Virus record (IMG/VR): IMGVR_UViG_2681813273_000006
DNA: 6,030 bases
Reading direction: 5' to 3' (one strand)
Source of the DNA: a virus
Lineage: Duplodnaviria > Heunggongvirae > Uroviricota > Caudoviricetes
Made by a program: the position numbers and the translations under genes. Below the pieces are notes generated by a model. That model did no database searches and was not told the DNA's origin. It saw only the letters and a program-made list of their open reading frames with translations. Of the stretch, positions 3,394 to 5,313 are shown piece after piece. Numbering within the stretch: the first letter of the stretch is position 1; every line of letters starts with the position of its first letter.

Positions 3394-3769
3394 TATTCAG
3401 CAGGTTATGGAACGGTGGGGGGCTTGGGCTGCAAACACTCATGAAGATGTATCCTGGGCGTCGATCGCTGCTGGTTTTAAAGGGTTAATTCCGTCGAAAG
3501 TGAAATCACGCCCTCAGTGTTCTGATGATGATGCAATGATAATTTGTGGCTGTATGGCCCGGTTGAACAAGAAAAATCAGGATTTGCACGATTTGCTGGT
3601 GGATTATTACGTAGGTGGAATGACTTTTATGAGTCTGGCACGGAAACATGGGTGTTCGGATACCTGTATTGGCAAGCGCCTGCAGAAAGCGGAAGGGGTT
3701 ATTGATGGCATGTTGATGATGCTTGATATCCGGCTGGAGATGGACAGATACGTAGAACGAATTATGTAG
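3383..3769 (+). CDS. Late-gene antiterminator Q (phage 82 / DLP12 quuD-like family)
   Basis: [28 protein letters not shown]...[16 protein letters not shown]...GKRLQKAEG strongly resembles my recollection of E. coli prophage Q (QuuD-type) proteins. ATG at 3383 has an AGGTGA Shine-Dalgarno 5 nt upstream and overlaps the rusA stop. A strong promoter follows at once. Confidence 0.8.
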
Positions 3770-3773
3770 GTGC

Positions 3774-3803
3774 TTGACCAGACACATTGTCCGGGGCTAT
3801 ATT
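3774..3803 (+). promoter_or_regulatory. Sigma70 late promoter (PR'-like) immediately downstream of Q
   Basis: TTGACC (3774-3779), 18-nt spacer, TATATT (3798-3803). The position directly after the Q stop matches lambdoid late-promoter/qut architecture. A 6-bp hairpin CGCCAG/CTGGCG sits at 3811-3828 in the initial transcribed region. Confidence 0.6.
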
Positions 3804-3864
3804 CCTCACGCGCCAGCAAAATCTGGCGTCGGGATTGGAACCCCGGATAGAGACCGCGACAGAC

Positions 3865-3889
3865 ACACGCCGCGAGCGTGTTTTTTATT
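3865..3889 (+). terminator. Intrinsic terminator (tR'-like), ending a roughly 77-nt leader RNA from the late promoter
   Basis: Stem ACACGC / GCGTGT with loop CGCGA, followed by TTTTTTATT. Confidence 0.6.
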
Positions 3890-4243
3890 GTCGTATGCAC
3901 GCGCACATCTGAATTATGGTGGGGCGCATGGGGGAGCTGAAAAGCTCGCCGGTCGGTTTCCCGGTAGTTCCAACCCTGTGCGTCTCACCACCCGATGATT
4001 GGAACCTGACGGTGTTGACAGTTTCAGGTTTGCAGTTTACATTTCCCCGCGGTGCTCAAAACACCTCGAAAGCGGTATCCACACCCGATAGCCATGTGGT
4101 TTTTTTGTGTCCAGAATTCTTGGTTTATGACCGGGTGTGCGGCTAATACAATACCAGCAATGGAAATACGCCCGCCGACTTTCGACGGTTTTGAGCGCCC
4201 GGTCACCCTCTCAAAAGGGGTAAATCAAAATATTCGAAAGGAC

Positions 4244-4813
4244 ATGTCTATGAATCGCACGTCTATTGAAAAACTCCCGTCACTTACGCATAACCATCTT
4301 CCTGTCATGACAACAGAGCTGCTGGCTGATTTGTACGGAACAGAGCGCCAGCGTTTGACAAACAATTTCAATCGAAACAAAGAACGGTTTATAGAAGGTA
4401 AACATTTTTTCCTGATAGAAGGTGATGCGTTACGAGAGTTGAAGAACGAAAACTCTTTAAGAGTTTCTGTGAAAATTGCCCGTAACGTTCGCTCCCTCAT
4501 CCTCTGGACAGAACGTGGCGCAGCCCGTCACGCCAAAATGCTCGAAACCGATCAGGCGTGGGAAGTGTTCGAAAAACTGGAAGACTGTTATTTCAACCAG
4601 AAACAGCCACCAGCGGCACAAAACACATCTATCGAAAATGATGGATGCGCATTACTGAGCCACTTCGATAAACACGGTCAGGTTGAGTTCACGGAAAAGG
4701 TACCCGCCGATGCGATGGTATGTACTCTGGAACGGTTTAAATTTTATCTGGAGCAACACGGGTGGATCGTTGCCCGTAAAGAGCAACTGGTGGAGCGGTT
4801 GATGCGGTTTTAA
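4244..4813 (+). CDS. ORF6N-domain (KilA-N-related) putative DNA-binding / antirepressor-like protein; start may be ATG 4250
   Basis: N-terminal region VMTTELLADLYGTERQRLTNNFNRNKERFIEGKHFFLIEGDALRELKN ... LWTERGAARHAKML fits the ORF6N domain pattern as I recall it. AAGGA Shine-Dalgarno lies 7 nt before ATG 4250. The ORF-track extension back to 4052 has no start codon and covers leader sequence. Confidence 0.65.
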   Translation: MSMNRTSIEKLPSLTHNHLPVMTTELLADLYGTERQRLTNNFNRNKERFIEGKHFFLIEGDALRELKNENSLRVSVKIARNVRSLILWTERGAARHAKMLETDQAWEVFEKLEDCYFNQKQPPAAQNTSIENDGCALLSHFDKHGQVEFTEKVPADAMVCTLERFKFYLEQHGWIVARKEQLVERLMRF

Positions 4814-4889
4814 AAATTTTTTCCGAAAACTTTACGATCGTAAAAAGTTGAATATCCTGTTAAGAGTGGTTACTACGCCACACAGCTTA

Positions 4890-4915
4890 AACCCGCCGAT
4901 GAGCGGGTTTTTTTA
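4890..4915 (+). terminator. Intrinsic terminator downstream of the ORF6N gene
   Basis: Stem ACCCGC / GCGGGT with loop CGATGA, followed by TTTTTTTAT. Confidence 0.65.
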
Positions 4916-4964
4916 TACCTGAAAAACGGCACAGGACGTTAAACGTGCTGGTGGTCAGATGAGT

Positions 4965-5002: not shown

Positions 5003-5079
5003 GGCCCTTTAGCTCAGTTGGTCAGAGCGAGCGACTCATAATCGCCAGGTCGCTGGTTCAAGTCCAGCAAGGGCCACCA
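5003..5079 (+). tRNA. tRNA-Ile2 (anticodon CAT, lysidine type, ileX/ileZ-like); tRNA-Met not formally excluded
   Basis: Manual cloverleaf: acceptor GGCCCTT/AAGGGCC, D-arm GCTC..GAGC, anticodon loop CTCATAA, T-arm GCTGG TTCAAGT CCAGC, discriminator A plus CCA. Closely resembles E. coli ileX. Confidence 0.8.
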
Positions 5080-5080
5080 A

Positions 5081-5157
5081 CCACCACTAGCTCATCCGGA
5101 TAGAGCATCAACCTTCTAAGTTGACGGTGCGAGGTTCGAGTCCTCGGTGGTGGGCCA
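5081..5157 (+). tRNA. tRNA-Arg (anticodon TCT, reads AGA)
   Basis: Manual fold: acceptor CCACCAC/GTGGTGG, anticodon stem TCAAC/GTTGA with loop CTTCTAA, T-arm CGAGG TTCGAGT CCTCG, discriminator G plus CCA. Confidence 0.8.
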
Positions 5158-5159
5158 GC

Positions 5160-5235
<76 letters not shown>

Positions 5236-5238
5236 TAT

Positions 5239-5313
<75 letters not shown>

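Follow-up and report, generated by a model that had tools for sequence, protein, structure and literature searches.

The DNA analysed here, which we call the window, is one strand of 6,030 nt from the Caudoviricetes record IMGVR_UViG_2681813273_000006. A Q gene (PF06530) ends at 3769 and an ORF6N gene lies downstream of it. An earlier note had described the interval 3890-4243 between these genes as a long untranslated leader. The distance of about 350 nt that it gave between the terminator tR' and the ORF6N start agrees with what we find, as tR' ends at 3886 and the gap to the start is about 360 nt. However, the interval is not free of genes. Rfam covariance models place two RNA genes inside it, a C4 RNA at 3912-3995 (71 bits) and an sRNA-Xcc1-type RNA at 4129-4212 (77 bits). 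We refer to the C4-type RNA and its associated elements as module 1 and to the Xcc1-type RNA and its associated elements as module 2. The protein gene that follows and its terminator are:

4250-4813, + strand: ORF6N-domain protein of 187 aa, antirepressor-type (Pfam PF10543, E 9e-21)
4889-4916, + strand: intrinsic terminator after ORF6N (8-bp stem with 5 GC pairs, T-run)

By its sequence the ORF6N protein is of the antirepressor-associated type. Throughout the relatives the cargo genes at this position encode ORF6N, P22_AR_N, AntA, KilA-N, Rha or Bro-N domains, and in genomes carrying an identical ORF6N protein the gene is followed by lysis genes. The ATG at 4250 is the likelier start because the Shine-Dalgarno sequence AAAGGA (4237-4242) is only 1 nt from the ATG at 4244. 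RefSeq uses the ATG equivalent to 4250 in E. coli EC12 (L002). The box on the Shine-Dalgarno side lies 6-11 nt ahead of the start codon in most relatives, and in most of 61 relatives it overlaps the ribosome-binding site, as it does here. The 37 nt between the Xcc1-type RNA and the ATG at 4250 contain no ORF, so a coupling ORF of the icd or orf45 type is absent there. An Rfam scan of the window gave no match to isrJ, and its weak matches below gathering, to Trp_leader (4843-4916), sR58, YrlA and Plastid-ycf2 (antisense to tRNAs), were taken as chance.

The C4-type module downstream of Q

Module 1 begins directly after the Q gene and contains the following elements:

3774-3803, + strand: promoter TTGACC-18-TATATT, 10/12 match, directly after the Q gene
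3810-3886, + strand: isrK-type leader RNA (Rfam isrK 77.5 bits and c4-a1b1 50.1 bits, above gathering)
3833-3841, + strand: a1 box GAUUGGAAC in a hairpin loop of the leader
3850-3856, + strand: b1-like GAGACCG in the leader, with one G-U pair to C4
3865-3886, + strand: terminator tR' (terminator scan)
3912-3995, + strand: C4-type antisense RNA gene (Rfam RF01695, 71 bits, E 7e-13, model 1-87/87)
3997-4005, + strand: a2 box GAUUGGAAC, complementary to C4 a' (comparison with relatives)

The promoter at 3774-3803 is probably the late promoter PR' and the counterpart of the isrK promoter. The C4 match exceeds the RF01695 gathering threshold of 45 bits over the full model, with the b' loop CGGUUUC at 3954-3960 and a' GUUCCAA at 3967-3973, and the duplex between the module 1 leader and C4 is predicted at -33.1 kcal/mol. 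The C4 of phage P1 is processed by RNase P at its 5' end, and candidate signs of processing are present here as a conserved UAU/G context and a CACC tail.

Module 1 is incomplete. The window has the a1, b1-like and a2 boxes but lacks b2 together with its Shine-Dalgarno sequence and gene. In type A relatives (L043, L006, L004 and others), C4 is followed by a b2 box at a Shine-Dalgarno sequence and, after about 55 nt, by an ORF6N gene. In the window these parts appear to be gone because of a recombination joint at about 4020-4030, which would leave the module 1 C4 without a cis target gene, so that it could act only in trans. Three combinations occur among the relatives, namely isrK-C4-ORF6N, leader-Xcc1-antB, and both in tandem.

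Promoter, leader and antisense RNA of the second module

Module 2 is intact and comprises these elements:

4003-4030, + strand: hairpin AACCUGA/UCAGGUU around the P2 -35 hexamer (-11 kcal/mol, z -1.66)
4015-4043, + strand: promoter P2, TTGACA-17-TACATT (promoter scan; hexamers position-conserved in relatives; annotated as a promoter in the Nil2 homologue)
4050-4106, + strand: leader RNA (covariance model R1, 60.8 bits; stem covariation; complementary to the Xcc1-type RNA)
4051-4054 / 4062-4065, + strand: leader hairpin GGUG/CACC, with box a1 in its loop
4055-4061, + strand: box a1 CUCAAAA, in the leader hairpin loop
4066-4072, + strand: box b1 UCGAAAG, adjoining the leader hairpin
4073-4075, + strand: invariant CGG directly after b1
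4079-4083 / 4095-4099 and 4100-4106, + strand: terminator hairpin CCACA/UGUGG plus U7 (conserved stem and U-run)
4084-4091, + strand: conserved terminator-loop motif CCCGAUAG (comparison)
4107-4112, + strand: GUGUCC adjoining the U-run, also seen in relatives and in P1
4129-4212, + strand: sRNA-Xcc1-type antisense RNA (Rfam RF02221, 77.4 bits, E 2e-13, model 1-87/87)
4129-4139 / 4194-4204, + strand: outer stem of the Xcc1-type RNA
4179-4185, + strand: b' CUUUCGA, hairpin-2 loop of the Xcc1-type RNA, complementary to b1 and b2
4189-4195, + strand: a' UUUUGAG, 3' single strand of the Xcc1-type RNA, complementary to a1 and a2
4205-4208, + strand: ACC(C) tail of the Xcc1-type RNA
4210-4216, + strand: a2 box CUCAAAA, complementary to a', 2-5 nt after the RNA 3' end
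4234-4240, + strand: b2 box UCGAAAG, overlapping the ORF6N Shine-Dalgarno AAAGGA at 4237-4242

The earlier note had pointed to TTGACA (4015-4020), a 17-nt spacer and TACATT (4038-4043) as a promoter, and to CCACA (4079-4083), an 11-nt loop, TGTGG (4095-4099) and seven T (4100-4106) as an attenuator. All of these are there, and the hexamers match the consensus at 10/12 positions. In the single sequence each stands at chance level. The promoter scan returned 4 promoter-like sites against an expectation of 2.6 +/- 1.5, and the hairpin is weak (5 bp, -3.9 kcal/mol, z = +0.64 against shuffles) and was not called by the terminator scan because its 11-nt loop is too long. Only the comparison with relatives made both credible.

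We found at least 9/12 matching hexamer positions 22-27 nt upstream of b1 in 54% of 48 divergent loci, compared with 2.5% of control windows. The homologous site in phage Nil2 (L001 3527-3566) is already annotated 'promoter by homology'. The module is also present at loci without an upstream Q, including L001 antB, many IMG/VR and bacterial loci, and Xanthomonas and Pseudomonas loci. At L051-L054 the upstream sequence is different, yet the hexamers TTGACA/TATAGT are kept. Near-consensus hexamers, a spacing of 16-18 nt and a conserved position mark P2 as a sigma-70-like site, with a predicted start at about 4050-4052. The hairpin around its -35 hexamer is replaced by AACAUGAA/UUCAUGUU at the same place in L002/L055, which is a compensatory change. 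The part of the earlier claim that concerned a second, Q-independent promoter is therefore upheld for a conserved site, from which we infer promoter activity.

P2, the hairpin and the U-run are parts of a conserved motif of 66 positions, with a leader of about 57 nt, for which covariance model R1 gave 74 matches in 100 sources. At least 70 distinct phage sequences have the leader motif ahead of an Xcc1-type RNA. Compensatory changes are seen in both leader helices, and a hairpin abuts the U-run in 47/48 loci, with 19 distinct terminator stems. The covariation score of the leader was 0.392 in an alignment fitted by the covariance model, which favours the structure, compared with 0.210 +/- 0.013 for shuffles, none of which reached it (0/500); slid registers all scored lower. 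Pairs were counted on this refitted alignment because a MAFFT alignment of the leaders was misregistered by one column in many rows. A lenient hairpin finder scored 43-47% of shuffled leaders, so the raw rate of hairpin detection is no evidence, and the case for the leader hairpin rests instead on the distinct complementary stems and on the slide and shuffle controls.

The leader at 4043-4106 had no Rfam match even at E<=1, with the Hfq-binding RNA isrK (RF01394, gathering 50 bits) included, and the window leader had no exact match in species-representative genomes. Judged by its sequence, the module 2 leader is a separate motif (R1), a companion of the Xcc1-type RNA that is absent from the Rfam matches here. 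When the entire read-through RNA is folded at minimum free energy, the leader is paired in cis with a' and b', and such pairing could let nascent read-through transcripts escape repression.

The Xcc1-type RNA exceeds the RF02221 gathering threshold of 53 bits over the full model. By analogy with the GenBank annotation of P1 C4, the mature RNA would end at about 4129 and about 4207. The a2 box touches the end of the Rfam match at 4212, so it would lie outside the mature RNA if the 3' end is where we predict it. Promoter, a1, b1, RNA, a2 and b2 follow each other on one strand, which is the layout of the P1 immI type.

The boxes change together with the RNA. For 78 unique Xcc1-type RNAs from IMG/VR, we compared each RNA with its own flanks and with the flanks of other loci. 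The hairpin-2 loop had an exact complement of at least 7 nt within its own downstream 70 nt in 49/78 cases (3.8% in other flanks) and within its own upstream 130 nt in 58/78 (8.6% in other flanks). For the 3' single strand the corresponding numbers were 43/78 and 45/78. None of 5000 permutations reached any of these four values (p<=2e-4). Among 76 further unique elements from bacterial genomes, the loop had complements downstream in 36/76 and upstream in 57/76, and the 3' single strand in 19/76 and 47/76, where permutations gave means of 2.9-8.6 and maxima of 10-19. Examples of co-varying pairs are CUUUCGA/UCGAAAG in the window, CUACUUG/CAAGUAG in L001, CUACUGA/UCAGUAG in L002 and CUGUUUG/CAAACAG in L091. 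The boxes thus co-vary with the Xcc1-type RNA across about 150 independent loci in two independent sets. In the window, the duplex of the RNA with the leader is predicted at -36.6 kcal/mol, which 0/1000 shuffles reach, and that with a2-b2 at -19.9 kcal/mol, which 1.8% of shuffles reach. This evidence points to linked rather than unlinked targets of the Xcc1-type RNA.

Known systems and alternative explanations

Module 2 is identical in order and spacing to immI (c4-icd-ant) of P1/P7, where a sigma-70 promoter also comes first and the cargo is an antirepressor. As in module 2, P1 immI has a1 in a hairpin loop, b1 followed by CGG, a short hairpin, a U-run and GUGUCC. P1 C4 resembles the Xcc1-type RNA in its long closing stem, two inner hairpins and CACC tail, and a2 and b2 are placed alike, in P1 3 nt after C4 and 10 nt before icd. 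The best match in P1 of model R1, which was built on Xcc1-type loci, is the P1 leader (16.3 bits, E 8e-4). Unlike P1, module 2 has an RNA that belongs to RF02221, outside the C4 clan, with no match to the C4 model at E<=1; it lacks an icd-like coupling ORF, its b2 lying on the Shine-Dalgarno sequence of the antirepressor-type gene itself; its terminator loop carries a conserved CCCG(A/U)YAG; and no C1-type operator was identified at P2. Control of an antirepressor by a processed RNA, comparable to module 2, is also found in phage N15.

The homologue of module 1 is isrK-orf45-anrP-isrJ of Gifsy-1 (Salmonella), which has Q upstream, the isrK match and an antirepressor-type gene downstream, and the C4-type RNA stands at the position of STnc1160/orf45 (PMC4825925). 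IsrK, a short terminated leader RNA, was shown by experiment to act in trans on the read-through mRNA and to activate its translation (Hershko-Shalev et al. 2016, PMC4825925). In contrast to Gifsy-1, the C4 module of the window has lost b2 and its Shine-Dalgarno sequence, its orf45-like ORF is uncoupled from the downstream gene, and a complete Xcc1-type module is inserted between C4 and ORF6N. Satellite phage P4 (CI RNA, seqA/seqC) is cited as a structural relative of IsrK (PMC4825925). Its CI RNA, like what we propose for module 2, is a small RNA processed from its own operon leader that pairs with boxes upstream and downstream; the outcome in P4 is premature transcription termination, an outcome also possible for module 2, whereas we propose Shine-Dalgarno occlusion.

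A self-contained attenuator, intrinsic or of the leader-peptide kind, could set ORF6N transcription from a Q-independent promoter with no trans-acting RNA. It would account for the conservation of the promoter, hairpin and U-run, and GCGG-nnnn-CCGC, present in most relatives, could form a hairpin competing with the terminator stem. Such an attenuator does not, however, require leader boxes that co-vary with the loop and tail of a downstream RNA, and the ORF6N Shine-Dalgarno sequence is itself complementary to that RNA. The leader-peptide version was rejected because there is no conserved small ORF, the ORFs varying in length and end point, and we regard a self-contained attenuator as improbable. 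What stands of the attenuator in the earlier note is a conserved, terminator-like hairpin and U-run; this is not a stand-alone device but forms the 3' end of a short leader RNA, which carries two boxes complementary to the downstream antisense RNA. It is also quite unlikely that the leader is passive, with ORF6N expressed only from the Q-adjacent promoter by Q-modified polymerase, P2 a by-product of the joint and the hairpin irrelevant to a terminator-resistant polymerase. Late transcription has to pass through the module, given its place between Q and the lysis genes, and this is a point for the passive leader, as are the chance-level score of P2 in the single sequence and the position of its -35 TTGACA at the joint, where type A relatives have GTGATA. 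Yet unrelated contexts, among them the loci without Q, also have TTGACA-17-TAnnnT at the same distance, and the hexamers are retained at L051-L054 despite their different upstream sequence.

The Xcc1-type RNA might instead act mainly in trans on mRNAs of the host or of other prophages, with the ORF6N neighbourhood incidental. sRNA-Xcc1 of Xanthomonas campestris (RF02221) is described as trans-acting and virulence-linked (PMC2996969, PMC12189769), and as an integron sRNA controlled by HrpG/HrpX. The Xanthomonas loci sit before symE rather than an antirepressor gene. They carry the same promoter and leader with covarying a1/b1 boxes, but a2 and b2 boxes were sought there and none found within 160 nt, so Shine-Dalgarno occlusion is not universal in the family. 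The module 1 C4, itself lacking a cis target gene here, also fits such a role. Nevertheless, the variable loop and tail of the Xcc1-type RNAs match their own flanks and change together with them, and the target box lies on the Shine-Dalgarno sequence of the very next gene; we consider a mainly trans-acting role very unlikely. Cis and trans roles of the Xcc1-type RNA are not mutually exclusive. No paper that connects sRNA-Xcc1 with c4-type control came up in our literature search, an absence that is not proof. Finally, what matters could be translation of a 76-codon ORF at 3916-4146, a homologue of orf45. Its existence qualifies the earlier statement that the interval holds no credible ORF: it starts at the AUGs of Gifsy-1 orf45 (+107 and +119 relative to the start of isrK), it is predicted by gene callers in genomes, and Gifsy-1 orf45 is translated and coupled to anrP (PMC4825925). 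As a conserved protein it was rejected, since in relatives it has 27-45 codons and differing end points, with similarity only where it overlaps the C4 RNA. It has no Pfam match, its stop at 4146 leaves 100 nt to ORF6N, which makes coupling impossible, and for Gifsy-1 itself conserved nucleotides and variable amino acids are reported (PMC4825925). We give this explanation almost no credence.

A proposed RNA switch and its implications

We conclude, with a probability of about 70%, that 3890-4243 carries, in tandem, the central part of one control module based on antisense RNA and an entire second one. It is likewise probable that both follow the logic of P1 immI and Gifsy-1 isrK, as a phage-P1-style RNA switch. 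The sequence is best read as having a second start that does not depend on Q, followed by a terminating leader, and the earlier proposal of a second promoter plus attenuator was partly right, with control apparently exerted by antisense RNA instead. Most likely, control acts mainly at the Shine-Dalgarno sequence of ORF6N, which can pair with the same Xcc1-type RNA.

In the mechanism we propose, P2 would start transcription at about 4050 and most transcripts would stop at the weak terminator at 4079-4106, giving a leader RNA of about 55 nt that displays a1 in its hairpin loop and b1 beside it. Read-through transcripts would contain the Xcc1-type RNA of about 79 nt (4129 to about 4207), which, by analogy with P1 C4, may be cut out of the transcript with RNase P acting at the 5' end. 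Its b' and a' segments would then pair with b2 and a2. Because b2 overlaps the Shine-Dalgarno sequence, free antisense RNA should block ORF6N translation. The leader RNA complements a' and b' even better and should therefore titrate the antisense RNA as a decoy, like IsrK. The direction of control, in which the antisense RNA represses and the leader relieves, is taken from P1 and IsrK. Alternatively or in addition, the antisense RNA may promote termination at the leader, as happens in P4. The net effect would be to keep ORF6N off in the lysogen, even though the promoter looks constitutive, and to release it once transcription flux outruns the antisense RNA, whether from P2 or from Q-modified read-through from upstream.

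We see about even chances for the broader reading that the whole sRNA-Xcc1 family consists of c4/CI-type, cis-encoded 'immunity' RNAs and that C4 and Xcc1 modules can be stacked before one antirepressor gene. The family occurs in Xanthomonas, Xylella, Haemophilus, Pseudomonas and STEC. If this reading is true, it would span enterobacterial and Pseudomonas prophages to Xanthomonas integron cassettes, always with its own promoter and decoy/terminator leader, and the reported virulence link of sRNA-Xcc1 would be secondary. Annotation pipelines report RF02221 as a virulence-type sRNA; here it would be a c4-like regulator of the neighbouring gene. The leader motif, absent from Rfam, could help in annotating the promoters and regulatory targets of hundreds of prophages. 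What had looked like an empty leader is now a fully parsed switch with exact, mutable base-pairing partners, which makes it directly testable. Tandem C4-type and Xcc1-type modules would form a two-key RNA lock inside a Q-dependent late transcript. Whether a prophage remains silent is decided by antirepressors, so the way they are controlled determines induction rates, including those of prophages of the Stx-phage family, in which the module sits at the position occupied by stx.

RNA genes between the Q and ORF6N genes

The window comes from a lambdoid prophage, of which it is the late-regulatory region. It contains a DnaB-like gene, RusA, a Q-family antiterminator gene (PF06530) ending at 3769, an ORF6N-domain gene and, at 5003-5313, the tRNA genes Met(cat), Arg(tct), Thr(tgt) and Gly(tcc), which separate ORF6N from the lysis cassette. 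In genomes encoding an identical ORF6N protein, the tRNAs are followed by holin, lysozyme, Rz and terminase genes. ORF6N and the four tRNAs fill the position of tRNAs and stx in Stx phages. The ORF6N start codon is more likely ATG 4250 than ATG 4244 because the Shine-Dalgarno sequence (SD) AAAGGA sits at 4237-4242, and the ATG equivalent to 4250 is the RefSeq start in E. coli EC12.

The identical protein (4250-4813) occurs in ~3900 blocks of a public collection. Of 5426 complete E. coli genomes, only 2 carry the region (best identity 87.5%), and an exact-match scan of species-representative genomes did not find the exact leader sequence. Probably the host belongs to a heavily sequenced enterobacterial species that is not E. 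coli. In its left half (1419-2943) the window is not colinear with real genomes: a segment of DnaB C-end, 85-aa ORF and RusA stands there three times at 71-100% identity, with the copies split by N runs (1648-1658 and 2439). In chromosomes with the identical ORF6N protein each of these genes is single-copy, with an IS3-family transposase nearby. Paralogous prophages appear to have been scaffolded together here or to form a mosaic.

The earlier note had described 3890-4243 as an untranslated leader. An Rfam scan instead found this part densely occupied by RNA genes, all matched at full length and over curated thresholds.

Rfam matches
3797-3849: c4-a1b1 motif, overlapping isrK, 50.1 bits
3810-3886: isrK, 77.5 bits, containing the tR' of the earlier note
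3912-3995: C4 antisense RNA, 71 bits
4129-4212: sRNA-Xcc1, 77.4 bits

A terminator after ORF6N (4889-4910) has the same position as isrJ in Gifsy-1; the scan gave no isrJ match, and a Trp_leader match (4843-4916, 24.9 bits) is below threshold and probably due to chance. In public genomes, gene callers place proteins of 72-74 aa within the leader (window 3916-4146; locus L328, 5679-5897; locus L329, 5525-5749). Because these ORFs overlap RNA genes, have no Pfam match and are not conserved in length, we rejected them as probable mis-annotations.

A conserved leader motif

The earlier note's promoter and hairpin fall exactly between the C4 and Xcc1 matches. Both are present: TTGACA (4015-4020), a 17-nt spacer and TACATT (4038-4043) match at 10/12 positions, and CCACA (4079-4083) and TGTGG (4095-4099) enclose an 11-nt loop followed by seven T (4100-4106). 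Neither is above chance in the window alone, where a promoter scan gave 4 sites against 2.6 +/- 1.5 expected and the 4079-4106 hairpin (-3.9 kcal/mol, z +0.64) is too weak for a terminator call. Comparison with relatives, however, indicates that both are parts of a conserved leader motif. When leaders were aligned on b1, one of two boxes (a1 and b1) upstream of the Xcc1-type RNA, nearly all loci had one architecture.

Parts of the leader, in order
Part 1: a -35/-10 pair
Part 2: ~7 nt downstream of the -10, a 4-5-bp hairpin whose loop contains a1
Part 3: b1, then an invariant CGG
Part 4: a 4-8-bp hairpin whose loop begins with near-invariant CCCG(A/U)YAG
Part 5: a U-run, often with GUGUCC next

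The hairpin abuts the U-run in 47/48 leaders and has 19 different stem sequences (among them CCGCA/UGCGG, CCACA/UGUGG, CCAAC/GUUGG, AUCAC/GUGAU and GCCAAG/UUUGGC). R1, a covariance model of the motif, scored 60.8 bits at 4043-4106 and gave 74 matches in 100 sources. In the refitted alignment, which is fitted to the model, both partners have changed in 8 of 9 pairs. Covariation scores 0.392, whereas shuffles give 0.210 +/- 0.013, with 0/500 as high as 0.392, and slid registers score lower in every case. Promoter hexamers with >=9/12 matches precede b1 by 22-27 nt in 54% of loci, versus 2.5% of control windows. The commonest -35 is TTGACA, and four loci with unrelated upstream sequence (L051-L054) keep TTGACA-17-TATAGT. 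The Rfam scan of the window returned no family for this leader.

The CGG (4073-4075) and CCCG(A/U)YAG (4084-4091) persist across ~50 divergent leaders in the leader alignment and could form a pseudoknot or anti-terminator pairing. A further hairpin, AACCUGA/UCAGGUU (4003-4030), surrounds the -35 hexamer of this second promoter, P2; at its position, E. coli EC12 (L002) and L055 show the compensatory change to AACAUGAA/UUCAUGUU. This hairpin could serve as an operator or, within read-through transcripts, as an RNA element.

Complementarity of the Xcc1-type RNA to its own flanks

A pattern scan of IMG/VR with the conserved family core gave ~85 diverse genuine elements. Their variable parts are the second-hairpin loop and the single strand preceding the closing stem, and both are complementary to boxes in the flanks of the same element. 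We scored exact complements of >=7 nt in the own downstream 70 nt and upstream 130 nt of 78 unique RNAs. The loop had a complement downstream in 49/78 (3.8% for flanks of other loci) and upstream in 58/78 (8.6%); for the single strand the counts were 43/78 and 45/78, against ~8%. Each observed count exceeded those of all 5000 permutations. The result held in an independent second set, 76 more unique elements drawn from bacterial genomes (Pseudomonas, Xanthomonas, Neisseria, Haemophilus, Desulfovibrio and others), with 36/76 downstream and 57/76 upstream for the loop and 19/76 and 47/76 for the single strand, where permutations had means of 2.9-8.6 and maxima of 10-19. Loop and box co-vary: CUUUCGA/UCGAAAG in the window, CUACUUG/CAAGUAG in Nil2, CUACUGA/UCAGUAG in EC12 and CUGUUUG/CAAACAG in L091. 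In most loci the loop's downstream complement stops 6-11 nt short of the start codon and therefore extends into the SD; the other downstream box lies a few nt past the CACC tail of the RNA.

Complementary segments in the window
4055-4061: a1, CUCAAAA
4066-4072: b1, UCGAAAG
4179-4185: b', hairpin-2 loop, CUUUCGA
4189-4195: a', 3' single strand, UUUUGAG
4210-4216: a2, CUCAAAA
4234-4240: b2, UCGAAAG, overlapping the SD (4237-4242)

The predicted duplex of the RNA with its leader has -36.6 kcal/mol, reached by 0/1000 shuffles, and that with a2-b2 -19.9 kcal/mol. Judged from this complementarity, the Xcc1-type RNA is probably an antisense RNA of the c4 type.

Xanthomonas-type sRNA-Xcc1 loci were seen in Xanthomonas and relatives (L212, L216, L221, L225, L243, L263, L273, L285). 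They keep promoter and leader, with a1/b1 co-varying with the RNA; a GC-rich hairpin comes next after the RNA, and no a2/b2 boxes were found within 160 nt downstream. SD occlusion would thus be a property of phage, enterobacterial and Pseudomonas members and may not extend to the family founder.

Module arrangements and proposed mechanism

Among 80 ORF6N loci from IMG/VR and annotated phage and E. coli records we found three arrangements.

Arrangements
Type A: isrK, C4, ~55 nt, ORF6N/ant gene; 933W-like Stx phages and many prophages
Type B: leader, Xcc1, ~38 nt, antB; phages Nil2 and 2851
Composite: isrK, C4, leader, Xcc1, ORF6N; window, L002, L007-L019, L051-L055

Type A has the order of Gifsy-1 isrK-orf45-anrP, studied by Hershko-Shalev et al. 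(PMC4825925). Nil2 reads isrK, C4, antA, 'promoter by homology', Xcc1, antB, and from gene order the window looks like a Nil2-like arrangement minus the first antirepressor gene. With type A loci it has only the first ~30 nt past C4 in common, including the a2 box of the C4 module, GAUUGGAAC (3997-4005). The b2/SD site and gene of that module are missing, and TTGACA of P2 stands at the site of GTGATA in type A. With its cis target gone, this C4 RNA could act only in trans; candidate targets include type A modules whose boxes are identical, such as L043. Four contigs (L099, L077, L096, L175) have two leader motifs each, in L099 at 6548-6623 and 7070-7134, each upstream of its own Xcc1-type RNA; the tandem arrangement is thus a recurrent one. 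Five consecutive sRNA-Xcc1 copies are reported in a Xylella paper (PMC12189769).

As annotated, P1 immI has the same plan as the Xcc1-type module: promoter P1c4, a1 in a hairpin loop, b1, CGG-ACAA-CCGC...GCGG-UAUUUUU-GUGUCC, C4 RNA, a2 3 nt past C4, b2 10 nt before icd, then ant. R1 was built from Xcc1-type leaders only, and its best match in the P1 region is the P1 leader (16.3 bits, E 8e-4 in 801 nt); a weak second match in the window is isrK (9.5 bits). Genes behind Xcc1-type RNAs encode ORF6N, P22_AR_N, AntA, KilA-N, Rha or Bro-N domains, often with P22_AR_C added, which by domain content is the set of phage antirepressor-type proteins.

We propose that P2 initiates at ~4050 and that many transcripts stop at the weak terminator 4100-4106, giving a ~55-nt leader RNA. 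P1 C4 is processed by RNase P; read-through transcripts would carry an Xcc1-type RNA of ~79 nt, its 3' end relative to a2 being predicted, that would be cut out likewise. Once free, it would pair with a2/b2 and block the ORF6N SD, an action that the P1 record gives for C4 on icd-ant. The leader RNA, as the stronger complement, would be expected to titrate the antisense RNA and turn translation on, as for IsrK, whose activation of translation has been shown experimentally (PMC4825925). Alternatively, the antisense RNA may enhance termination at the leader, as in P4. When 4050-4262 is folded at minimum free energy, a'/b' are paired in cis with the leader, a structure similar to the alternative ones described for isrK-orf45.

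Systems of this kind are already known from P1 immI, P4 and IsrK. Papers mentioning sRNA-Xcc1 treat it as a trans-acting, virulence-linked sRNA, at most noting that it precedes an ORF6N gene in APSE phages or symE in Xanthomonas integrons; we found in them no description of a c4-type working of the family, of its own leader motif or of tandem stacking of C4-type and Xcc1-type modules.

Since the module sits between Q and the lysis genes, Q-modified polymerase from 3774-3803 should pass all three terminators, and its passage upon induction would flood the system. The promoter directly 3' of Q and its 77-nt terminated transcript (3774-3886) correspond to the expected PR'/tR' unit and at the same time match isrK/c4-a1b1 in full; in relatives not adjoining Q, homology starts no earlier than the -10 hexamer. 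The leader RNA from the late promoter of the prophage would double as decoy RNA for the C4 module.
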